A stretch of DNA of 63,537 nucleotides, filler included, from Catajapyx aquilonaris (taxonomy: Eukaryota): assembly GCA_000934665.2 (NCBI GenBank). It is 2 parts of 2 records of this genome, joined end to end, with 100 filler letters (N's around TTAATTAATTAA, not from the genome) between each part and the next. Parts side by side here need not be neighbours in the genome. Positions count along the whole stretch, not along the records: positions 1 to 31,875 come from KZ539159.1; 1 more part is not named here. One strand, given 5' to 3'. The notes beneath the pieces were generated by a model that saw nothing but the letters and a program-made list of their open reading frames with translations, was not told where the DNA came from and searched no databases. Every line of letters starts with the position of its first letter. Positions within the stretch are counted from its first letter, which is position 1. The position numbers and the translations under genes were made by a program. This document shows positions 19,314 through 31,741 of this stretch, one piece after another.

Positions 19314-19617
19314 ATTCTTGCTTTTTTATTTTTGATCCTGTTGTTACAAGTCTGCCCCCCACAACAATCTTGCTCACAACCTCGTTAAATTTAAAGCAGC
19401 AGCCCATTTATCTTGTACTGTTTAAATCCATCAGGGGCTTTGTACTTAACCAGAGTCAATTAAATTTGTACTTTTTTTGACTTTGTAGTTTTCACCGTGT
19501 CAACTTACCACCACCAGTAAAAAATTCTTTATAAAAAAATTGCAGGAACCAGCTTAAAAACTTAAAGCCGTTTAAAAAGGAACCCAAGTTAAAGTTAACG
19601 GTGGTTAACATTCGTGT

Positions 19618-20696
19618 TCAGTACACCATTCCAAGGACAGACTTCCAGGGACTCCAGCCCTTGTCATCCTCGTCGTCATCTTCCTCTTTCTTTCCGTCAG
19701 TGTCCATCGAACCATCAGCAGTCTTGACCTCTCCGTCAGTCTTGTCCTGGTCAGTCTTGACCTCACGTGTGTCCAGCACGCTCTGGAAGGTGGTGGTCAT
19801 CCTGGCTATCTCAGTGTCGATGCTAGTAGCCTGGTATGTACTACGAAGTTGCTCTTGGTGCCACACACGGACAATGTTGTTGAAGCCCTGAAGACGCACC
19901 TCGTACTCATGGGTCATCAGCAGGTCCTGCACAGGTCACGAGTTAAAGCTTCAATGTGAAATCAGATGACCTATGAACTTACCTCGATGACCTCAGGCAG
20001 CTGGGGACACTGTCCTCGGTAGTAGTTGTCCAGATAACGCAAATGCTCCTTACAGGTGACAACATTGGCCATCAGCTCTTCCTCTCGTTTCTTCAGCTCC
20101 TTTGTGTCCATGTCCAGCAGAAGCTTGTATCGAGCCACGTTGACCTCCAGGTTGGTCATCGCCGTAATAATCTCGTACGTCACGAAGTATCTGTTCCTGC
20201 GAACGAAAAAAAAAAAATACATCAGTACCATTTAACCCCATCGTTTTGACACTAACGTACTCAAGATCATCTGAAGTGGACAGTCGATGTATGCAGCTCT
20301 GGAAGTTCTTGACCGCAGCATCCACTTGCTGGAAGTGGTCCAGCATCTTCAGCAGCTTGTCCATGACCAAGGAGACCTGAGAGGCCTGCTCTATGGTCAT
20401 CAGAGCTATGGCAGCGCGGCAGCAGGTGTAACGGTCACTTGTGTTGAAACCTCGATCTTCTCGGCGGACAACTGCAAAACATGTCAAAAGGTCACTCCCA
20501 ATAATTGAACACCCCCCAAAAAATAATGGACAAGTTGGCGTCATTGTCACCCGAAAGTCCCAGATAATCCGGTCACTTTCACTTCTCAATGACAAATTGA
20601 CCATTATTATTGCCATCCAACTTGAAGTCAACACATTTGCTCCATTTGACGAGCCTGGGTTTTGACCTTACCAGAGTTAGCTGCCTGCGCTGCCAT
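19618..20696 (-). CDS. Uncharacterised helical protein 'C', 252 aa; exons 20696-20672, 20471-20261, 20196-19983, 19926-19618
   Basis: GT-AG introns join the separate ORF pieces in frame (MAAQAANSVVRRED...EEDDDEDDKGWSPWKSVLGMVY). No family recognised; the first exon is the least certain. Confidence 0.75.
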
Positions 20697-21291
20697 GACC
20701 CCCGAAATTTGACCTGGACCTTTTTTGTTGTAGGCTGCTGACCCCCACGTCTTGCTTGTCTTCCAGCAGATCTTAACACAAGCTGTCCAAGAAGCCAACT
20801 AAGCACAAGAAGGCGGGACACGAGCCAAAAAAAAGCCTTTTGTGAGCTCAAAAGAGATAAGAACTGGTGTGACGTCTTACTAGATCACTATTGGTTTATT
20901 TTTGTGGGGTTTGACGGGAAAATCCAGCACTTAGCATTTGGGGGGAAGGGGGATTATGTTAGAAGGGGTTGGAAAGTGAGAAGTAAAATTCACCTATTTT
21001 TAGTGCAATTTTAGCATATTATTTTTTCTTGTAGCTTAAATCACCAGACATTAACTGGGAGGGGGGGAAATGCAGATTGTCAATTTTTGCAATTTTTTTA
21101 AGGACGCTGCTGCAGCTCAGTTGTGCGAAAAATTATCTTAGGAAATATTGGTTGTGCATAAGTGTAAAAATGAGCTACATATTAAAATTTAAAAAATTTA
21201 AAAATAGCTAATGCTCCTGGCCTGATGAAGTGGCGATGTTAATTTACAGCTGCTTGTTCTGCAATTTATTTATTTCTTTTGTAAAATAACG

Positions 21292-21830
21292 AATATTATT
21301 TCCTGAGATATTGCCCTATTTGCCTATTAGATAAAACACCTTGAAGATATATTGCAAAAATTCTTAATATATTTTTTTCAAAAATTTGTGGCTCAATTTG
21401 TCCATATACTGGTTCACCAAAATATTCGTATTAAATCAAAATCGCATTTTCTGAGATATTGCCGATTAGATAAAAACGTCTTAAAGACCATAGCAATGTA
21501 GTTGCAAAAAATCGCAATTTTGTAATGCATGTGGTTTAATTGTCCACACTGGTTCACCCAAAAAAAATATTTTCGTATTGAAATAAATCGCAAAATATGA
21601 TTTCCTGAGATTAGATTTCAAAAACACCACAAATTCTTTTCAAGAAAATTATACATGTGTCGTTGGTTCGCCCCAAAAAAATGTATGCATTCAAAATCAC
21701 AAAGTATTGTTTTCTGAGATATTTCCGATTAGGTAAAAACCCCCCCAAAAAATGTTAATAATTTTTAATAGCGTACATGTGGCTCATATGGTTCACCAAA
21801 AAAATATATTCGTATTCATTCAAAATCACA
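21292..21830. repeat. Four degenerate ~110-155 bp tandem units
   Basis: TT(T/C)CTGAGAT..., TGGTTC(A/G)CC and AAATC(G/A)CA blocks recur in units starting near 21298, 21446, 21601 and 21710. Confidence 0.75.
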
Positions 21831-21950
21831 ATCCATTTATTAAACAGTATGCAACCTATAAAACAACATTATTGACAAATCCTTATAAAATTAGGGCATT
21901 AAAACAACGAGGCCAAAAATAATCCACAAAAAAAATTAAAAAATTTGGGA

Positions 21951-22825
21951 TCAGTACATATTTGGAAATCGCCAGCTGATGTAAGATGGGGGCAGAGGGG
22001 GCGGTGGGGCAATGAAATTAAGAGGGGGCGGGGGCATAATTGTTGTGGGTGGGTACAGAGGGTTGAATGGGAACTGCATGTATTGTTGGGGAAGGAACGG
22101 ATCGGATTGGATCGGAACGGGTTGGACAGGTTCGGGCGGGTTTGAACGGACGAAAAAAGGTTGGGCCTCAGGGTTCAGATCAGATTTGGGAGTGACTGGC
22201 CTTGGGTTATTCTGGGGCTCGGGTTGGTCAGCTTTGACCTTCACATTGATGGCGACCCATTGGACATACCCGCACACAACTGGGTTCAACTTTGTCTCCA
22301 AAATGGACACCTCCTTTTTAGATCTGACGCGTCGATCCTCCATGCGAGGAAGCCAGTTCTCAAGAGCCTCCAAGTGACCATGAAACTTGTGGTTATCCAC
22401 CATGTATTGGACCACGAATGACTTGACCGGATCGTTCTTCCAGAGGTCAAGGTTCATGGATGCGATCATGGTCTGGAGCTGGGTGCGATTGCTCTCCATG
22501 TCTTGGCAGCCACGTGCCATTGTCTCCTTGCACATGTTCAGAATCTTCATGTTATCATCTCGCTGCTTCGGTCTGCGATATGGGGCAACAATTAATTGCA
22601 CAGACACATAAAATTGAACTATAATAATTAAACTCACGTGTGTTGCAGCTCTTTGTTGTAGTGCTCAGCGTACCATTGTTGCAGCTTGATGCATTCTTGG
22701 TGCTTGGTCTGGTACAGTTCGGACAAACACTGGATCCTGTCCTGTCCGTCTTTTATCTTCTCCGGAAGTGTCATAATCACGTCTTGGCAACACTTATTCG
22801 GGAGAACAATGCTGCTCAAGTCCAT
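21951..22825 (-). CDS. Uncharacterised protein 'A', 269 aa: helical N-terminus, PAM2-like motif, Pro-rich tail; coding exons 22825-22638, 22572-21951
   Basis: A 65-nt phase-2 GTGAGT..CGCAG intron joins two ORFs. Acceptor just upstream of the ATG and a GTATGT donor near 22893. Contains SDLNPEAQPFFV. Confidence 0.78.
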
Positions 22826-23027
22826 CACCGGCTGTAATGAGCATTGTTAATAATATAATTGCAGACAGGAGGTTATTGAGTAAACAGTACATACCAGGCT
22901 CACACCTTCACGTCTCGACTCAATTTTTGGCACTGATCATATTTTCTGTAAGACTGATGAACTCAACCCTTTCAAACAAAATGTACCCAATCAAACAGAG
23001 CACATTTTTTTTTATTGCCACATTGAC

Positions 23028-23653
23028 CTACACAATTGTTGTAATATGACGCGGTATGTCGCCATGTCCGCCGTGGGTGTGAAGCCCTGCAAAAATTACA
23101 TTACTGGCCGGTAATTATTGTGTAATAATTGTACAGCTTACATTCTGTGTCTTGCTCTTCTTCAGAATCGGAGTCTGGATACACTGCACGTCTTGAAATT
23201 CGCAATCGACCTGTCGCAAAAAAATCGCATGAATATTTATTGCCAAATTTATTTTCGCACAATTACCTCGTGGATATCTGGAGCAATTGTGGTGATAAAA
23301 TGGCAGCTGTTGCATGAAAATCCTGCGTTCATCAGCTTCCTGCATAAAAATCATTAATCGTCACTGATGGACCTGGTCTAGACCAGGTCCAGTATAGTGT
23401 GCACACTTGGACCTGGTCCTGTTCACCCCCCGAAAAATCGTACCATTCGTGCCTTGATGCATCTCTTGCTGACCAGGTGTATGAAACGGGCCAACAATTC
23501 GGTTGCGGTCACAGCGACTATCACGGCCAGCATGACCCAAGCGTAACCTTTGATGACCTCCACCAAAAAATCCCACGTGGAGAAGTCCACCTTCTGATTT
23601 TTGGTCAAATGGTACACCTGAGAATCCACAACCAGGAATTCCGACTGATCCAT
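23028..23653 (-). CDS. Uncharacterised small single-pass membrane protein 'E', 136 aa; exons 23653-23444, 23339-23267, 23210-23142, 23086-23028
   Basis: Three GT-AG introns keep frame. Hydrophobic YAWVMLAVIVAVTATELLA; ends HITTIV*. TATAAT upstream and AATAAA just after the stop. Confidence 0.72.
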
Positions 23654-23869
23654 TGTTGTCCAGGGGGGTCACCATGACATCAATTAAGTTCAATGTACTA
23701 TTATACACGCGACCTGCGCTTTTTTATTATTTCATTGAATTACAATAATATAGGATATATAATAAATGGGAGTAAATACATTATTAGAATGGGAGTTGGT
23801 GAGTACAATAATCAAAAAACACATTGTTGACCGGCCCTGCTTGATCATAAAAGGTATTGTTGCCCAAAT

Positions 23870-24942
23870 TTAAACGAGGTTCATCAGGTAGGACCGGACA
23901 TAGACTGGGTTGCGTTGTAGTACCCCGGTGCGCTGTAATGAGACAATGTGTGAGTACTGTTGCAGCATTGTTGCGGGTTGTGTAAGAATGTACCTGTGGC
24001 ATCCGTTACCGGACATGAGGTACAGTGTGGCCGGTGCGGACGGACCTCCTTGGGGTGCATCGCCGTTCATCATGAGCATGACCGGTACCTGCGGGGACGT
24101 ACCGGGAGGGCAGCAGTGACCTGACACGACCGGACGAGCGTTTGGGTTCAGGACCACGTACATCGGACCATGATCACGGTACGTACTGGACGGACCAGGC
24201 ACCAACGTCGACAATCCGGTACCTGCGTCGGTACTGTTGCACTGCCGACCTCGAAGTCTCTCTTTGGCTGTAGCACGTTCCTCCAGGTCGACCAGGATAT
24301 GACGCAGCTCCTCCAACGGCGACCTTTGACCCTTCTCAGCCAGCCGGGTCTTCAGGTCAGGGTCACTCTCCCAGATACGGCACATGGACTCCATACGACT
24401 CAGGTAGCACAGTAGCCGCTTACGACGTGTCTCAAACGCAGCATCGTCCTCCCTGCAATCAGAATAGGTCATCAAATGCACCCAGGTCATATCAAAAAAT
24501 GTACTCACTTGCACATGGCTAATGCTTCGAACGCCTCGTGGTTCCTGTCCACCCCATACTTGGCCGACGGTACCATCTTCCTCAAGGTGAGCTCGAGCCA
24601 TCCGAAATGCTCGGTACGTTCCTTCCCTTTCTGCAACCGGTCCTGCAGCTCGGTCATCAAATCCTCCAAAAACCGGAGGACCCATTTCCACAACGAGGTC
24701 GCAACCTGCAGTGCATCGTCCTTGGAGTACTCCTCAGTCAACGAAGTCTGAGCAAACGCAACGATAATGAAGCTCTCAGTGAACCGATGCGCCTGACGAC
24801 ACACGTCGCACCAACGTCTCACAACCTGGCACTGGAAACGCTCCAGCTTCAACCGCCACTGTATATTATCCAGCAGCTTCTGATGATGAAAACTCTGCTT
24901 ATTCTTGTAGTACGACCTATGACCCTTCCCGACCTGATCCAT
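23870..24942 (-). CDS. Uncharacterised protein 'B': helical N-terminus, degenerate PAM2-like motif; intron 24508-24453 and probable in-frame intron ~24822-24748
   Basis: A 56-nt GTGAGT..TGCAG intron joins the 150-aa and 273-aa ORFs (AMCK|EDDAAFE). Sequence blocks resemble protein A. Confidence 0.78.
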
Positions 24943-25039
24943 CCCGCAGACTGACACCCCAGCACTGGCCGTACACTCCTCTTATCAGCACTTCAACCAG
25001 TCTAATTGAACCCATTCAAATTGGCCGCTACACGTAATA

Positions 25040-25582
25040 AGTATCGGAATGTATCGATAAGTACCGGAATGTATCGATAAGTACAGGCAAATATCGATAA
25101 TTATGTAGCGAAAGCATTTAAAATGTTGAAAATATCGATATATGCCAAGAATATCGATTTATGTTGTAAATATCTATTTATGTTGAAAATATCGATTTAT
25201 GGTGAAAATTATCGATTATAGTTGAAAATATCGATTTATGTTGAAAAATATCGATTTGTGTTGAAAAATATCGATTACAGATGAAAAATATCGATTACTG
25301 TTGAAAAATATCGATTACTGTTGAAAAATATCGATTGATGTTGAAAAATATCGATTACTGGTGAAAAATATCGATTACTGTTGAAAAATATCGATTTATG
25401 TTGAAAAATATCGATTTATGTTGAAAAACATCGATTTGTGTTGTAAAATATCGATTACGGGTAAAAAATATCGATTACGGGTAAAAAATATCGATATATG
25501 CTGCAAATATCGATTAATGTCATAAAAATATCGATATATGTCGACAAGTATCGATAAGTATCGGCAGACGATTGTATCGAGT
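25040..25582. promoter_or_regulatory. Tandem array of ~20-bp units carrying DRE-like TATCGAT(A/T), between divergent genes B and D
   Basis: About 24 ATCGAT cores counted; consensus TTGAAAAATATCGATT(T/A)(A/C)TG; several perfect TATCGATA near both ends. The repeat is certain; a regulatory role is inferred. Confidence 0.65.
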
Positions 25583-25864
25583 AGTGTGCTACCGGCCATC
25601 TTCGCACAAAATTGTCCTGGTTTTTTGTTCCGTCCTGGGCAGCACTAGGGGCAGAACACGAGGGAGGACACCGGGGCAGGAGCACGGGCAGGAGGCGGAT
25701 GCTGGCTGGACCACACACAACTCGGGGGCTGTTACTTATGGTAATGGTTAACAAACAATTCGAATTAATCGAACACTTTTTTTTTCTTTTTTTTGGGATT
25801 GGAATTAGTGTTCGAATTACAATTAATTAGTATTGCTAAGTAACGGACTAATTACAGTTAATGA

Positions 25865-27292
25865 ATGGATAAGCTGGTGGAGAAGACACAGAAGGCGCTT
25901 CAAGCCATGGCGTCTGGATCAAACGAGAGCTGCAAGACTGATGCGGAGGTAACTTGGTCGGTTCGTACGTAGCTGGTACGTATGTTAATTACAAATTGCT
26001 TTTTAATTAACAGAAGGATCATCCGTTGCGGCGGAAGAACTCAAACCTGTGCCGCCAGGTTCATGAGCTGATGCGGAACCAACCTGCCACCGAACCGGCC
26101 GTTCAGGATGTACTGGAAGGACTTCATAAGCTACTGGAGAAATCCAGGTTGCGCTTGGAGTCCGTACAGGTCAGCATTGTGGAAGAGCCGCTTCCGCAAG
26201 ACGATGAAGTGGACGACCTGATGGACGACGAGGACGACGTGTTGGGCGGAGGAACCGGATCCGCTTTCGTCCAGAGGGAAGAACGGGTGGAGAAAGTTCA
26301 GAGGTTGCTGGACTCAAACGAGTCGCTGGAGTCCGAGGTTGCGAGGCTCAGGAAGGACCGGACCCTGTTTTTTAACATGGAGGCCAACAGGCTCAGGGAG
26401 GAACTTAGGAAGTTGGGCGAGGTCGTCAAGAAGGTTCGGGAGCTCCCGCAGGTTCAGAGGTACGTATTTCGAGTACGTTGATGAGCAGGTGTCATCATTA
26501 TGTGTGTTGCAGCGTACTGGGGCGGAGCAGCAAGTCATTGGAGGACTTTGTGAACGAGCTTATGAGCGAGGCGGGCATTCTGCTGGAGTCCATACCGTAT
26601 GTGACTGACACCAGTGTGGCGATGGCTGAAGCGAATCCGGATGTGCCCGATTTGACCGATCCGTCCGATGTGCTGGTGTCCGAGGACTTCGCCGACTCGT
26701 GGACACTGCTGCAGTCAGTCCAGGGGCTTCTGAAGGGCACGTTAGAGGGCCTGCGTGAAGCCCACGGACGCCGGCTGGCTGACGAACGGGTCCAGGTGCT
26801 GACATGCCTATGCGACTTGATGGCCAAAATGAACGAGCATGTCGAAAAGTGCATTCCGTACCTACCGTACAACCCGGACCTTAGCGTCAAGCGGAAAAGG
26901 GCTCATGACATGGTAGTCGCCGCAGCTGGTTCGCAGGTATAATATTAAATTTTTTTTATTATTACGCCATACATTTTTCTACACTAATTTGTTCCCTGCA
27001 GAAGATCCGCAGCAGCGCTCGTCTCTGGGAGAAGCGGACGGAGTGCCTGCGACAGTTCCAGCGCATGCAGCAAGGGTCCGTGATGACCCGGCTGGACAGG
27101 CAGACAATGGACATGGAGATGCGTCGGTGCCAGCAGAGAACCGCAGCCCAATCCTCATCCAACACATCCAGTTCTTCCGGTTCCTCCGCATCCTCCACCA
27201 CTTCCGGAGTAGTCGCTCCTTCCACGACCGATCCCAATTTGTCGGGTAAGAAAAAAGCGCCAAAAGTACGCGCACAAGCCAAGGTCAAGTGA
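25865..27292 (+). CDS. Uncharacterised helical/coiled-coil protein 'D', 414 aa; exons 25865-25948, 26014-26459, 26513-26936, 27002-27292
   Basis: Three 53-65 nt GT-AG introns join the ORF pieces in frame. Acidic patch, basic KRKR and KKKAPK stretches, Ser-rich tail. Probable 5' UTR intron 25741-25857. Confidence 0.82.
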
Positions 27293-27491: not shown

Positions 27492-28221
27492 TTATCCTGT
27501 TTTGCGTGGCGGAGGTGGCGGCGGGGGTGGCCCGTAGTGCGGGGGCGGGGGTGGCCCGAAGTACTTTCTGAGCACGAGCGACCACTCGTACGGGTAGTTG
27601 CGCTGTACGTGAGCTATGACCTTGCGTATCTGCTGGTACTGAGAGCGTGAGCAGCGCGGGCAGTGGCCTCGCAGGATCTCAGGGGCCAGGCCTATGCATT
27701 TTCCGCAGAAAAGAAAAAAAAAGTTGTTTAAAAATAAATCGAGCAGAGTACAATGTTATCATGAGAGAGAGAAAAAAAAGGGATGCAAAACGTGGATTAA
27801 AAAAAAAGCCTGTATTTTTTTGGCTGTACGTATGTTGTTTTCTGTGACCTTTTACCATTCGCTGCGATTGTCGCGGCTTTTTCAGGCTGGCTTTTTATAT
27901 TCTTGCGTCAATTTCAGATCTTGGCGACGGCTAGGACGGACCCGACCCCATCCTGTTTTCCTTCCGACCCTTGTCGTATATTTTTTTTAAGTATGTATAA
28001 AAATATTGATACGTACGTCTCAAGTCTTGTCCCACTTTGTCGCAAGGACCGGCGTGCAATACGCAGTCCAGCTGCTGCCTCATGTACTTCTTGTCGTGAA
28101 GGGCGACCTCCAAAGCCGCGCTCTGGATGAGCTGGCGTCTGGCTCGGATTCTTGTGCCGCCCGCATCGGCGAAGGAGGTCCAGGCCACGATGAGGGCAAG
28201 CGGCAGGAGGATGCGTCGCAT
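27492..28221 (-). CDS. Chemosensory protein (OS-D/CSP family), 134 aa; exons 28221-28017, 27691-27492
   Basis: Signal peptide; exact C-X6-C-X18-C-X2-C spacing after splicing; IRKVIAHVQRNYPYEW helix. Probable non-coding first exon ending at a CAG|GTATGA donor near 28650. Confidence 0.92.
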
Positions 28222-29180
28222 CGTCTGTTGTTCGAAGTATATTAATTTCAAGGGGAAGGTTAGCAAAGCGGAGTGAGACGTTTTAACTTTCTCCTCTTTT
28301 CTCTTTTGGGTGCATGAACTTAGTATGAAATCGTGTGCATCAAGAGGCGACCTCCATATAGTGATTTTTCCGAGAATGGGCCACGCCATGTACACTTCCG
28401 AGATGTGGATCAGGATGCACCCGGAGATTGGTCTCTCGGAAGTACCGTTAGCAGAAGGGATAGGTTAGGCCTTTTTTGTATGCTGCTTGCATCGTACGTG
28501 GGTTACGGGCGATGCATGAGCATAAAAAGTGAAAATCCGCCGCCTTGCCAAATGACATATTATGCTTAAAAGAAAGTAAAAGCTGTCCTGGACCTTTGTG
28601 CGCTTGACCTGAAGTAGGTCATGGCCCTCCTCCCCCCAAAGGGTCATACCTGAAACGATGATGCGGTAGATGGTTTTTCCTGGATGGATCCGGCGGAGTG
28701 GCTGCTATTGAACTGTGTTGGCCGTTTGCTTGTTTCCCGTTGCAAGGCAAGTGGGCAACTGGGTCAGCCAGACACCGCCTTCCGTAGGGGTCGGCCCTTT
28801 TTATTTAAGAAGGTGGGAGGAGCGGCAATGGGGGGGGAAGTGACAGGTGTGGTGGCCTTGGCCTCAGGGAAGGAAGAGGGTCCTTGGCCTCCAACTGATG
28901 GAATCGGTGAAGGGGAAGAGAGGGGCCCACCGAAAATATCTTCACAACAAAGGAAAAGGACTTCAAGGCTGATTGGCTATGGCGTCACTGTGGCCTCGGA
29001 GGAGGTTGTTTATTATGCAATTGTTGTCGGCACGTGGGCATTGCAGAAGAGTAATTACGGTACGATCTGGAACCAATCCGAAGAATACATCCGTCGATAT
29101 GATGTCAAACACTGGGTGATTCGGATGAAAGATTACTAAGCACGGCTGTCCGTTTTTCCCCCCCCCTTTTCGAAAGGTCC

Positions 29181-31148
29181 TCAGGGCGTGTTATCCATGT
29201 ACACGTGCAGTCCTTGCGGGACAGCCTCGCTCCGTATGACCCGCCCAGCGTCGTCAATCTCCTCGATGGCGATGACCAGACTGGCCGGCTCGTCCGGGTC
29301 CTCCTCCCTCATGCTGCTGCCGCCTTCTTCCATCAGCTTCTCCGTCAGCTCCAGGCTCTCGTAACGAACAGTCTGGAGCCGAAGATAACCGTCGTGGTCG
29401 CACTTGTACCTGAACCGGGAGTGACCAGACGGCCACTGGTACTTGTGCTTTTTAATGAGATGCTGCGTCAGTCGTGATCCTCTTGGAAATACCTGCAATA
29501 CGCATTTTATAGCGGCGTACGTGGTTTTACAAATGATGCGACTTACCTCGTTGCACATATGGCAGCAGTACCGAGGCGGCTGCGTCTTATGCTTGACCAG
29601 CATGTGTTGGGCTAGCGTCCGCATTGACCTGCAAATGTAGGTGCATCCGTCCATCTCGCACTGGTGCTCGGTCGTGTTTAGGTGCGTCGACATATGTCGG
29701 GTTAGATCGCTCCGAGCCTTAGCGGTATGTGGGCAATGCGGGCATTGAAACGGCTTTTCCGATGAGTGACGGAACTTGATGTGGGTTGTTAGTCCGGATG
29801 GCTGCGGACAGGTCATATCGCAGTGTGGACACTTGTGGTTGTTGATGTGCTGCCGCATGTGGTCGCGCAGCAATCGCTCGAGCGCAAACGTCTTGGAGCA
29901 ATGGGAGCACTGGAAGCTTTGCACTGTAATGAAACGCAATTAGCGCATGTACACACATGGCAGCCGGTACTTACTTGTAACCGGATCCTGCCGTTTGCAG
30001 TGGTCATACAGCTTGGTTCGGTTAGCGAACAGCCCGCCACACGTCGGACAAGCGACGACCTTCTCCTGCGTATGGCTCCGAACATGCTCTTTCAACTTAT
30101 GCACCGACACGAAGTTCGCATTGCATCCGTCCCATTTGCAGTACACTCCGCCTTCGATCCTATTCCCTCTCGGGTTGGCCTCCACATGCGATTGAACATG
30201 CGCGTAGAAATGATGAGCGCTCAAGAAGGGCAGACGGTCCTCGCAGCAATCGTCCCAGTAGCATATGAGCTGCTCCGGCAACTCCGGGAGGGTATTACAC
30301 GCTTCAGGTGCAAACGAGCACCCTTTGAGACCCAGCCTGGTCAGCATGTTTGATCCGATGCATTTAAGACGTGTATGGAACGCATGGTAGTACACATGTC
30401 GCTGGGATTCGTCCGCTTGATGCGTCGTGAAGTCGCATCCGGTCCATTTGCACTCGTACGATGCGTCTGAAAAGTCGTAATGTTGCGGTTGGTACATCGC
30501 ACTTAAAGTTCGCAATAAAACAGGCCGTCAGAATTGCGGTTGGCTTCAGCTGTGGATCAGCCGGCATTTCCTATCAATTGCAAACATCACTTAGCCTGAT
30601 TACAGCTATGTACGGATCACATACTTTGTACCACACGTTTCAAGCAGCGTTTCCGTCCGCAATTATTGCAACGGATGCCATACAGATTTAACTGGGTTAT
30701 GCTGGTTGCTCGTTAGTAATTAGTTGTGACCACCCGATTCAATTGTGCTTTTTACATATTAGGATCTTACAATTTTAATGTAGTTTATGTTCCGCCATAC
30801 CTCGTACATTGAGTATGTCGGGCACGTGCAACGACACGTGCTTCACGAACTCCTCCGTGTCCTCCGTACTCTCATCGCACCAACCGCACGTCATCCGAAG
30901 CGTCTCCGCTTTAACCGGCGGACGAATCTTCTGAACAGCCCTGGTCCGATGCCGCTTCTCCGGCTGACCCGAGCTCAACGGGTCACTCTCAAACTTTGGA
31001 ACCGCAACCTCAATCAGCATCTGCAAGGAGAGGTCATACCACCGGGTCATACTCCGTACTTATTTGGAACAACTGTCGCAACAGTTACCTCCTCTTGCGC
31101 TGACTCCACCTTAAGCTGCATTGTCCACGCATCAGGTTTGGGCTCCAT
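29181..31148 (-). CDS. HINFP: Histone H4 transcription factor (HiNF-P), C2H2 zinc-finger protein, 486 aa; exons 31148-31089, 31020-30801, 30466-29975, 29923-29547, 29492-29181
   Basis: Diagnostic RSHTQEKVVACPTCGGLFAN, ERLLRDHMR and WPSGHSRFRYK..DGYLRLQTVRYESLELT. Splice phases are consistent. Confidence 0.95.
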
Positions 31149-31285
31149 CTGTAACGACAAGGACCAAAGACGGTCAAAAAAAACGACAGGGACCAACAAC
31201 CAAAGACGAACGACAACAACGAACGACAAGGACCAAAAAAAAAAAAAAACGAACGACAACGTGTGAACATACCTGTACCAAAAAA

Positions 31286-31741
31286 AACGTTCCAAAGTTC
31301 CAAACACAGACGTTCGAAAGTTCTAAAAGACAGACGTTCCAAACACAGACGTTCGAAAGTTCTAAAAGACAGACGTTCCAAAGTTCCAAACACAGACGTT
31401 CGAAAGTTCCAAAAGACAGACGTTCCAAACACAGACGTTCCAAAAAAAACGTTCCAAAGTTCCAAACACAGACGTTCTAAGGTTCCAAAGACAGACGTTC
31501 CAAAGTTCCAAAAAAACCGTTCCAAAGTTCCAAACGCAGACGTTCGAAAGTTCCAAAAGACAGACGTTCTAAGGTTCCAAAGACAGACGCTCCTCCAAAG
31601 TTCCAAAAAAAANNNNNNNNNNNNNNNNNNNNNNNNNNNNNNNNNNNNNNNCCAAAAAAAAAAAAAAAAAAAAACGTGCCAAAGTTCCAAAAGACGGACG
31701 TTCTAAGGTTCCAAAGACGGACGTTCCAAACAAGCGTTCCC
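31286..31741. repeat. Complex minisatellite of GTTCCAAA / (C/G)ACAGAC modules upstream of the HINFP start, interrupted by an N gap
   Basis: Repeated variants of CAGACGTTC(C/G)AAAGTTC(C/T)AAA. Confidence 0.9.

Follow-up and report, generated by a model that had tools for sequence, protein, structure and literature searches.

Between two divergent genes of Catajapyx aquilonaris, the palindrome ATCGAT recurs about every 20 bp over half a kilobase. Is this array a promoter element that has been multiplied, or a repeat that happens to lie between two promoters? We conclude that the former is probable, with an ordinary repeat that merely took up a factor site close behind in likelihood. The window referred to below is the whole stretch of DNA analysed, 63,537 nucleotides with filler, which consists of two parts of assembly GCA_000934665.2 joined end to end. 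The array lies in the first part (positions 1 to 31,875, KZ539159.1).

By exact motif count, the window contained 30 copies of ATCGAT, 24 of them within 25053-25555. Dinucleotide-preserving shuffles gave a chance level of 11.3 on average and 19 at most, and none of 100 shuffles reached 30. The 23 intervals between the array copies were of 20 bp in 17 cases, 19 bp in three and 21 bp in one; the remaining two, of 41 and 38 bp, each contained a unit in which the palindrome has decayed, to AGCATT at 25113 and to ATCTAT at 25172. About 26 head-to-tail slots of a 20-bp unit were recognised in this way, of which 24 retain the palindrome. The sequence-only reading, which had claimed about 24 phased TATCGAT-type sites 19–21 bp apart, was borne out by the 24 copies and by the 21 of 23 intervals in that range, and TATCGAT itself was present at 23 of the 24 sites. 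That reading had also seen phasing at two helical turns. The spacing stood but the special phasing did not, because 19–21 bp is the length of the repeat unit and needs no selection.

Tandem Repeats Finder reported two arrays of period 20, one at 25037-25100 (3.2 copies, 88% match) and one at 25123-25555 (21.9 copies, 82% match, 3% indels). With a head-to-tail unit of 20 bp in many copies, the array falls among the minisatellites, whose units are of 10–100 bp. Two types of unit were distinguished: type A (GTATCGATAAGTA), found at both array ends, and between them 21 AT-rich units of type B (GAAAAATATCGATT followed by a variable linker). The 24 sites comprised seven perfect TATCGATA, 16 TATCGATT and one CATCGATT, and 21 of the 24 twenty-mers were distinct. 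Perfect sites had been claimed for both ends, and both have them: four on the left (starting at 25052, 25072, 25092 and 25133) and three on the right (25489, 25529 and 25549). In runs X1, X3 and X4, the DNA contigs end inside the array. Its parts, and the exons that flank it, are as follows.

24508..24954, minus strand: first exon of the left gene, with the ATG at 24942-24940; an X5 contig reaches 24933.
25037..25100, plus strand: left array edge, 3.2 type-A units with consensus ATAAGTACCGGAATGTATCG and three of the perfect TATCGATA (25052, 25072, 25092).
25101..25122, plus strand: decayed unit slot, whose in-phase hexamer at 25113 (AGCATT) has three mismatches to ATCGAT; it accounts for the 41-bp interval from 25093 to 25134.
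25123..25547, plus strand: central type-B units, 21 slots, of which 20 have an exact ATCGAT and one is decayed (ATCTAT at 25172).
25548..25582, plus strand: right array edge, one type-A unit GTATCGATAAGTATCGG with its site at 25550, then a degenerate half-site TATCGAG (ATCGAG at 25576).
25658..25740 (at least), plus strand: first exon of the right gene, non-coding, from a spliced X5 contig; a GT..AG intron at 25741-25857 follows.
25858..25948, plus strand: second exon of the right gene, with the main ATG at 25865-25867 (MDKLVEK...); coding continues from 26014.

At the left edge, GTATCGATAAGTA matched at 25051, 25071 and 25091, the last copy with two mismatches, and an exact GTATCGATAAGTA was found again at 25548. 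The right-edge unit GTATCGATAAGTATCGG is identical to the left-edge unit at 16 of 17 positions and has the same orientation. Linkers of the type-B units vary (TTATGTTG, TACTGTTG, ATATGCTG and others), and 22 of the 25 matches to AAATATCGATT in the window, at one mismatch or fewer, fall in 25123..25547 or at 25089. The central units contain 18 A-tracts of at least four A, spaced at 19–21 bp, and their A+T content is 75%.

The genes on both sides were delimited with contigs of X5, a sequencing run of unrecorded kind whose contigs were used solely for what they join or cover. The divergent genes claimed from the sequence were borne out by the spliced contigs, which place them about 80–100 bp beyond each array end. 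The left first exon reaches at least 24933 and the right one begins at 25658 or before, with the array (25037-25582) between them; contigs cannot show exact transcription start sites, and these are exon limits. From these limits, the array occupies the larger part of the gap that separates the two 5′ ends. The lack of X5 contigs over 25008-25655 is a gap in contig cover and not proof that the array is untranscribed.

Coding sequence of the left gene runs on through 23994-24451 and ends near 23880 on the minus strand, with X5 splice joints of the form CT..AC at 24451/24508 and 23932/23994. Its TCAGTC at 24954-24949 is presumably initiator-like. Translation of the joined exons gave an orphan protein of about 325 aa. 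In the right gene, X5 joined 25739/25857 (cut +1; shorter side 82 letters), 25946/26012 (cut +2) and 26932/26998. An upstream ORF of three codons (ATG AAT GGA TAA) starts at 25861, and the product is an orphan, coiled-coil-like protein. Apart from coiled-coil noise, no Pfam family was found in the proteins of the two flanking genes with E cut-offs of 0.01 and 10, searches with the left and the right gene for longer homologues found none, and Atlas look-ups returned only scores of 0.77 or unspecific coiled-coil entries. Since both genes are orphan, no tie to proliferation or housekeeping can be made. The array had been supposed to control a gene cluster; an all-against-all BLASTP of the window ORFs showed no paralogy among the neighbouring genes, and this idea was dropped.

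The array lies in a stretch of normal CpG content. CpG observed/expected was 0.98–1.12 over 24–33 kb, which includes the array, compared with 0.34–0.62 over 33–53 kb. An unmethylated array, as suggested earlier from its many CpGs, agrees with such a CpG-normal stretch of an otherwise CpG-depleted genome, and judged by base composition the stretch would fit an unmethylated promoter domain. The other suggestion, that the array is recent, is unlikely, its copies matching at only 82% and most of its twenty-mers being distinct. The array is of low copy number: DNA-contig depth was 10–58 inside it and 18–31 in flanking single-copy contigs of the same runs, and no further copies of the unit motifs beyond chance were found in the window. 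Contig depth, window searches and an inverted-repeat test of the flanks all failed to show a dispersed or transposon-borne array, the case that would have told against a promoter element. None of the six ATCGAT outside the array is preceded by T and followed by A or T, so the other promoters of these 63 kb, which are few, have no site of this kind. No Rfam family was found in the window.

Conservation across the units was measured by counting all 26 in-phase slots, a set which is therefore independent of the choice of motif. Mismatches were found in 4 of 156 cells of the core and in 100 of 364 cells of the flanks (Fisher p = 5e-13). In a column-permutation test over the 26 slots, a 6-column window as clean as the core was obtained with p = 0.002. 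When the 21 central units were taken by motif-blind fuzzy detection, the core window ranked 1 of 20, with one of 24 extra alleles (binomial P = 0.002), while column permutation in these units gave p = 0.038 only. No change in the core is of the kind that decay of CpG to TpG or CpA would leave. The claim that the core is invariant while the flanks drift was thus upheld for the core and found incomplete in extent: the conserved block exceeds the palindrome and covers about 12 bp, AAAATATCGAT(T), that is, the 12-bp block AAAATATCGATT, after which a variable linker of 7–8 bp follows. The A-tract (columns 4–8) is conserved nearly as well as the palindrome. One core is shared by unrelated sequence contexts (GTATCGATAAGTA, AATATCGATAATTA, AATATCGATTTATG and AATATCGATATATG), which is expected of a homotypic site cluster.

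The reading that we favour, at a little under an even chance, is that the units form a homotypic array of binding sites for a factor that recognises ATCGAT, in the first place a DREF-like one, and that unequal exchange built this array out of the few TATCGATA sites of an ancestral bidirectional promoter. Its starting point would have been a small cluster of GTATCGATAAGTA-type sites, which still forms both edges and would have been split and enlarged to about 26 slots by unequal exchange or replication slippage of the AT-rich unit (GAAAAATATCGATT with its 7–8 bp linker). The palindrome and its A-rich 5′ flank have stayed constant as the linkers diverged. The sites may be bound by a dimeric ATCGAT-recognising factor, for which a DREF-like BED-finger protein would be the first candidate and a CUT/ONECUT-class homeodomain protein the second. 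Binding would keep the region of about 700 bp between the two start sites open, and would promote, or at any rate allow, transcription of the two orphan genes.

The first candidate is suggested by the DRE (Drosophila TATCGATA; hDRE/ZBED1 in man), which according to PMC7471704 works with DREF at promoters of housekeeping and proliferation genes. For Drosophila it is stated that DREF needs no more than the central 6 bp of the DRE to bind and activate, and sequences that match at 7 of 8 positions are counted as DRE-like (PMC2475616). The central ATCGAT is present at 24 of 24 sites of the array; the full 8-bp palindrome occurs in seven units and a 7-of-8 match in 17. As DREs do, the sites lie in 5′ flanks near transcription starts, here 100–600 bp from two start regions. 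The array differs in number and layout, since Table 1 of PMC2475616 lists between one and three sites of DRE or DRE-like type per Drosophila promoter, compared with 24 in strict tandem here. It also differs in that its conserved block adds an A-tract foreign to the DRE and its host is not a Drosophila. Among the matches listed in a search of literature titles and abstract openings, no long tandem TATCGATA array at a promoter was found.

A/T runs flank the core of ONECUT motifs, and the array units likewise have an A/T run beside the core. The ATCGAT core itself, by sequence also that of a candidate CUT-homeodomain site, is given as the core of the CUX1/2, ONECUT1-3 and CEH-48/CEH-38 motifs and of the Miz-1 motif Mizm2 (PMC4077741). 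In C. elegans, a single ATCGAT is central in CUT-factor ChIP peaks and was tested by mutation (bioRxiv 10.1101/2021.12.10.472091), and by these two sources CUT-class use of ATCGAT spans C. elegans to man. CUT-class sites differ from the array in being single or few and often in distal enhancers, and the accessible text of these sources describes no tandem array for them. The earlier identification of the sites with DRE/DREF is accordingly kept for the sites, all 24 of which hold the hexamer called sufficient in PMC2475616, and given up for DREF as the sole candidate, CUX/ONECUT and Miz-1 being others.

Should the array prove to be bound and active, promoter design could be studied in it as in a natural experiment, with one site present 24 times at a fixed pitch between two genes; it would suit asking how site number and spacing set the output in both directions and the opening of chromatin. 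DRE-type (or CUT-type) promoter logic would then also extend to an arthropod far from Drosophila.

The strongest competitor to the homotypic binding-site array is a passenger minisatellite, which we regard as a serious possibility though a tentative one. A few edge TATCGATA sites of the promoter would have seeded a 20-bp repeat, which slippage or unequal crossing-over then enlarged in a neutral manner; the added units would have no effect except to push the core promoters apart, and the intact cores would reflect shared subfamily descent, not selection. Minisatellites are abundant here, Tandem Repeats Finder giving 33 rows in the window. These include a 23-bp array at 31287-31730, beside the 5′ end of another gene; a second minisatellite, of about 14 or more copies, lies immediately upstream of a HINFP-like gene. 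Differences among the units of the array are concentrated in a small number of columns, by which unit subfamilies are distinguished, and in the central units the permutation test reached only the p = 0.038 quoted above. The spacing, being simply the unit length, also agrees with neutral growth. A metagenomic satellite of 149 units that shares the TATCGATA core shows no special conservation of it (the core ranks 9 of 20), which indicates that such arrays can occur without visible constraint.

Promoter minisatellites and VNTRs, together with homotypic clusters, resemble the array in being head-to-tail promoter repeats, here of 20 bp, which grow by slippage or unequal exchange and have a factor site per unit. 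Work in yeast reportedly connects unstable promoter repeats with evolvability, and by literature titles and abstract openings promoter tandem repeats are a studied class. The array differs in that its core is kept far better than its linkers and in its placement exactly between divergent genes. Neutral growth is harder to reconcile with units that are mostly distinct and match at 82%, yet whose cores hold so few of the mismatches. The conserved block is moreover contiguous and centred on a palindrome bound by known factors, and spliced contigs are obtained from both flanking genes although an insert of 0.5 kb separates their 5′ ends. Were the array a mere passenger, it would be an ordinary promoter minisatellite of little importance.

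A bolder version of the binding-site reading, which we consider improbable, would have selection maintain the array as a 'super-DRE', an amplified platform on which a BED-finger (DREF-like) factor lands. In this arthropod, which is not a drosophilid, it would be a bidirectional promoter and at the same time a domain boundary, and also a living intermediate of the origin of DRE/DREF from hAT transposon ends; the hAT-like MITEs described below carry the same ATATCGATAT repeats.

Very improbable is a structural role of the DNA itself, by intrinsic curvature or by nucleosome exclusion or positioning between the promoters, for which no sequence-specific factor would be needed. The 18 regularly spaced A-tracts, the high A+T content and the conservation of the A-tract close to that of the palindrome are what it would lead one to look for, and the power of W/S content was greater at period 10 than at period 20. 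However, the 10-bp harmonic was unremarkable, being reached by 8.5% of column-shuffled units. A purely structural role also leaves the invariant CG-containing palindrome unexplained, and the edge units keep the core without having an A-tract.

Equally doubtful is a transposon relic: a hAT-type element or MITE would have inserted between the genes, and its subterminal repeats, to which transposase binds, would later have been expanded into the array and perhaps co-opted by the promoter. BED fingers of hAT transposases bind subterminal repeats of this kind (PMC10368747), and DREF and BEAF are themselves BED-finger proteins of transposase origin (PMC7471704). A metagenome scan for the phased-TATCGAT pattern returned at least 119 loci, that pattern alone being scanned, with no rate relative to other 20-bp repeats; 43 of the 119 loci among the matches listed contain an element of about 262 bp. 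The array shares with hAT subterminal repeats such as the Hermes STRs multiple short repeats that a BED finger could, by analogy, read (PMC10368747), and with the metagenomic element ATATCGATAT typically every 20–21 bp. It differs from both in having no terminal inverted repeat or 8-bp target duplication at its borders, in its approximately single-copy contig depth with no further copies in the window, and in a unit sequence other than that of the element. The best inverted alignment of the two array flanks scored 14, a value reached by 546 of 1000 shuffles. Inverted pairs within the array are the palindromic cores only, and the edge units are direct, not inverted. No metagenome relative close enough to the window's unit was found among the matches listed (at least 119 loci).

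Least probable of all is a BEAF-type insulator or factor sink, in which the array separates two regulatory domains or titrates a factor and is not an activator: it has 26 TATCG (CGATA on the minus strand) and seven plus-strand CGATA within 546 bp, and CGATA clusters in Drosophila bind BEAF at high affinity near the start sites of closely spaced genes (PMC2605929), but the host is not a Drosophila, which makes BEAF-32 itself unlikely. The accessible text of PMC4208683 gives BEAF-32 as restricted to Drosophila, and the host genome is not Drosophila-like, with its mosaic CpG depletion and a HINFP-like protein at most 55% identical to anything among 5.8 billion proteins; the earlier proposal of BEAF-32 binding is weakened on these grounds. 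BEAF dual-cores consist of two clusters of three (or 3+2) CGATA around an AT-rich, CGATA-free spacer of about 200 bp (PMC2605929). The array resembles them in its many CGATA near start sites of closely spaced genes, its AT-richness and the overlap with DRE sites, whereas it is continuous and lacks the dual-core layout: nowhere in 25037-25582 are neighbouring CGATA-type motifs separated by such a spacer, the gap being 40 bp at most.

The metagenome contigs also revealed a hAT-like MITE family that carries phased ATATCGATAT repeats. Several of the metagenome matches are GATA-type microsatellites. The MITE is the element of about 262 bp and has inverted ends (C)AGAGTGACAAGATAT and 8-bp target duplications (for example at loci L053, L066, L076 and L101). 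Its copies contain 3–14 ATCGAT, typically spaced at 20–21 bp in those of full length. No Pfam family was found in the 30 ORFs scanned, which were drawn from 56 ORFs of at least 130 aa in 28 of the 43 MITE-bearing loci. The ATATCGATAT repeats are presumed to be transposase-binding sites, and a hAT-like MITE with the same phased palindrome offers a concrete, testable link between BED-finger recognition of transposon ends and the DRE/DREF system.

The phased ATCGAT array described by the sequence-only reading, which had counted about 24 DRE-like TATCGAT sites, is present at 25037-25582. Exact ATCGAT occurs 30 times in the window, and 24 of these copies lie within 25053-25555. Dinucleotide-preserving shuffles of the window contained 11.3 copies on average and 19 at most (30 or more in 0/100). 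The 23 site-to-site intervals were 20 bp (17 cases), 19 bp (three), 21 bp, 41 bp and 38 bp (one each), that is, 21 of 23 at 19-21 bp; a single decayed unit lies inside each of the 41- and 38-bp intervals (AGCATT at 25113, ATCTAT at 25172, respectively). Tandem Repeats Finder divided the period-20 array as follows.

25037-25100, left part: 3.2 copies, 88% match
25123-25555, main part: 21.9 copies, 82% match, 3% indels

Perfect TATCGATA was found at seven array sites (four on the left, three on the right), and the remaining sites read TATCGATT (16) or CATCGATT (one). The array is made up of two kinds of unit. Type A, at the edges, is GTATCGATAAGTA followed by C/T-CGG; three such units stand at the left edge and one at the right edge, all in one shared orientation, with the 13-mer exact at 25051, 25071 and 25548. 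Type B fills 21 slots in the middle and has the conserved block AAAATATCGAT(T), then a variable linker of 7-8 bp. The array has the appearance of a few clustered type-A sites between which an AT-rich unit with the same core then expanded, an order of events that is our reconstruction. GTATTGCTAAGTA at 25830-25842, in intron 1 of the right-hand gene, is two core bases off the type-A unit; either a decayed outlier of the array or chance (about one match per window is expected) could explain it.

Core and flank were compared across the full set of 26 in-phase slots, which were selected by their phase regardless of motif. Almost no change is seen in the six core columns, with 4 mismatches in 156 cells versus 100 in 364 in the 14 other columns (Fisher p = 5e-13), and when columns were permuted over the 26 slots, 0.2% of trials produced an equally clean six-column window. 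The 21 central units were also detected by fuzzy matching blind to the motif; there the core window ranked 1 of 20, with one of the 24 extra alleles falling inside it (binomial P = 0.002). Column permutation on the central units alone gave p = 0.038 only, because most of the variation lies in a few subfamily-marking columns. No CpG deamination product was seen among the core changes. Variation among the copies argues against the recent origin that had been suggested as one possibility, and the array is not young: the match between neighbouring copies is only 82%, and of the 24 twenty-mers taken around the sites, 21 are distinct.

Contigs from X5, a sequencing run of unrecorded kind, skip short GT..AG or CT..AC intervals. 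These contigs are spliced transcripts, because the skipped intervals are read through in three DNA runs of another sample. They bear out the divergent arrangement of the flanking genes, the left on the minus strand and the right on the plus strand.

24508 to at least 24933, minus strand: left gene, first exon (X5 spliced contig)
24942-24940, minus strand: left gene, ATG
~24452-24507 and 23933-23993, minus strand: left gene, introns; stop near 23880
25658 (or further upstream) to 25740, plus strand: right gene, non-coding first exon (X5 spliced contig), then an intron to 25857
25865, plus strand: right gene, ATG, with a 3-codon upstream ORF ahead
25949-26013 and ~26933-26997, plus strand: right gene, further introns
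~24942-23880, ~22900-21970 and ~20800-19500, minus strand: genes left of the array (spliced contigs)

The left gene carries TCAGTC at 24954-24949, which we take to be initiator-like. Roughly 80-100 bp separate the array from the known 5′ end of each gene, and it fills most of the ~700 bp between them. The upstream ORF in the spliced leader of the right gene (25861-25872, ATG AAT GGA TAA) overlaps the main start codon at 25865. The proteins of both flanking genes are orphans: they matched no Pfam family, had no homologues among longer proteins, gave no useful lead in Atlas look-ups and showed no paralogy by BLASTP with each other or with neighbours. To the left, 19500-24950 (minus strand) holds three successive genes with 56-65 bp introns and spliced-contig support, which have no Pfam families and are not mutual paralogues by BLASTP.

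Several known systems read this palindrome. TATCGATA is the DRE bound by DREF, and the site of human ZBED1 overlaps it; BEAF binds CGATA nested in the DRE and may compete with DREF, and both proteins have transposase-derived BED fingers (PMC7471704). The central 6 bp of the DRE are said to be sufficient for DREF binding and activation, and one to three DRE or DRE-like sites per promoter are reported, counting matches at 6-7 of 8 positions (PMC2475616). ATCGAT is equally the core of the CUX and ONECUT motifs and of the Miz-1 motif Mizm2 (PMC4077741). In C. elegans, CEH-48 and CEH-38 ChIP peaks are centred on ATCGAT, and the sites were mutated as a test (bioRxiv 10.1101/2021.12.10.472091). Among the literature titles listed for TATCGATA, none names a long tandem DRE array.

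Given its observed position, conservation pattern and single-copy status, we tentatively read the array as a homotypic binding-site array, with putative binding, factor and effect on expression, and hold this to be somewhat short of an even chance. A dimeric ATCGAT-reading factor would occupy many of the 24 palindromes and would keep the upstream region that the genes share open and bidirectionally active. Unequal exchange would have enlarged the array from a handful of type-A sites, and the copies would stay competent through selection acting on the core and the A-rich flank. The first candidate for the factor is a DREF-like BED-finger protein, because the T of TATCGAT is present at all but one of the 24 sites (23) and seven are perfect DREs; a CUT-class protein is the second. 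The earlier interpretation is partly supported, namely in the promoter-embedded multimer of a DRE-like site. The array belongs with promoter minisatellites and homotypic site clusters, among which its copy number and its core/linker contrast are unusual. It would gain significance if a factor and activity were shown, or if a link to hAT ends held.

The main rival, which we rate as possible and less probable, holds that the ancestral sites alone are of consequence and that the expansion is a neutral passenger. It is favoured by the many minisatellites of this genome, including a 23-bp array at 31287-31730 adjoining the 5′ end of an HINFP-like gene, by the structuring of array variation into unit subfamilies, and by the lack of any other such site within the window. 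On the other side stands the almost unchanged core.

Derivation from a hAT transposon is improbable. The regulatory reading was to be refuted if the same array occurred inside a transposon or dispersed away from promoters; contig depth and window searches, which test this indirectly, found neither at the locus. Depth in the three DNA runs was 10-58 for short contigs within the array and 18-31 for long flanking contigs, a modest excess that fits repetition inside the array itself and not a multi-copy family. AAATATCGATT with at most one mismatch has 25 matches in the window, 22 of them in the array; the three outside are AAATATCAATT, at chance level (2.0 expected). Inverted similarity between the two flanks was not significant (best score met by 546/1000 shuffles), and the inverted pairs found by repeat search at the array are palindromic cores only. 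Related repeats were sought in metagenome contigs as three TATCGAT at exactly 20-bp pitch; at least 119 loci matched, a count that was made with no control motif and so shows no enrichment. Several are GATA-type microsatellites. One ~262-bp non-coding element family occupies 43 of the 119 loci listed. Its ends, (C)AGAGTGACAAGATAT, are inverted, its target duplications are 8 bp long (e.g. L053, L066, L076, L101), and it carries 3-14 ATCGAT inside CCATATCGATATGG repeats, typically 20-21 bp apart in full-length copies.

L066:68-329, L053:1420-1639 and L038:1377-1625: examples of the ~262-bp element

Elements of the hAT type characteristically have CAGAG-type ends and an 8-bp duplication. The element looks like a hAT-type MITE with putative transposase-binding repeats containing the DRE palindrome, which points to a possible path by which transposon ends gave rise to the DRE/DREF system; ORFs flanking the element matched Pfam families in 0/30 cases. 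In Hermes, a hAT transposase, the BED fingers bind cooperatively to multiple subterminal repeats (PMC10368747). Core conservation was also compared in six long arrays picked for length (L024, L056, L020, L058, L095 and L113; L054 was omitted as it overlaps L024). L024/L054 is one 54-kb metagenome contig with a ~149-unit satellite of 20-21 bp units (TGTTGTAGTATCGATATTAT) and the same TATCGATA core. Its core window ranked 9 of 20 over 149 units, no better conserved than the rest, with one T-to-C core variant in 23 units. The core window ranked 1-3 in the other five, partly forced in short arrays by the detection pattern. From the MITE-like family and these long arrays, 20-bp repeats bearing TATCGATA exist in two settings, within transposons and as plain satellites.

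A structural AT-rich element is an account of similarly low probability for an array whose A-tract 5′ of the core shows near core-level constancy in the central units and is missing from the edge units.

Least probable of all is a BEAF-type insulator or sink. The BEAF dual-core is two clusters of ~3 CGATA around a ~200-bp AT-rich spacer near start sites (PMC2605929), and BEAF-32 is described as confined to Drosophila (PMC4208683; compare the title of reference 26 in PMC6827083). BEAF-32 itself is unlikely on phylogenetic grounds, and this part of the earlier interpretation is not supported.

The neighbour gene at 29181-31059 (minus strand) is a homologue of histone H4 transcription factor (HINFP), with best matches in sharks, a priapulid, hemichordates and molluscs (41-55% identity) and no Drosophila protein among the 120 matches listed. 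The exon at 27931-28230 (minus strand) matches the OS-D/A10 chemosensory-protein family PF03392 weakly (E = 0.0065, 17 bits, under the Pfam cut-off of 25), which hints at a possible arthropod origin. CpG o/e is 0.75 over the whole window and mosaic, at 0.98-1.12 over 24-33 kb and 54-63 kb and 0.34-0.62 over 33-53 kb; TpG and CpA are in excess (1.19 and 1.18). Mosaic CpG depletion is typical of invertebrate genomes with partial DNA methylation. The source genome is probably that of a methylating, non-dipteran arthropod with the array inside an unmethylated domain, and the values over 24-33 kb support the earlier suggestion that the array is unmethylated.

A second promoter-side minisatellite lies at 31182-31730, with 40-bp and 23-bp repeats (core GTTCCAAA..ACAGAC) in ~14 or more copies. 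It is broken by an assembly gap at 31613-31651, and what is probably the first coding exon of the HINFP-like gene (30775-31059, minus strand) follows immediately downstream. Both long arrays in the window are sited at gene 5′ ends.
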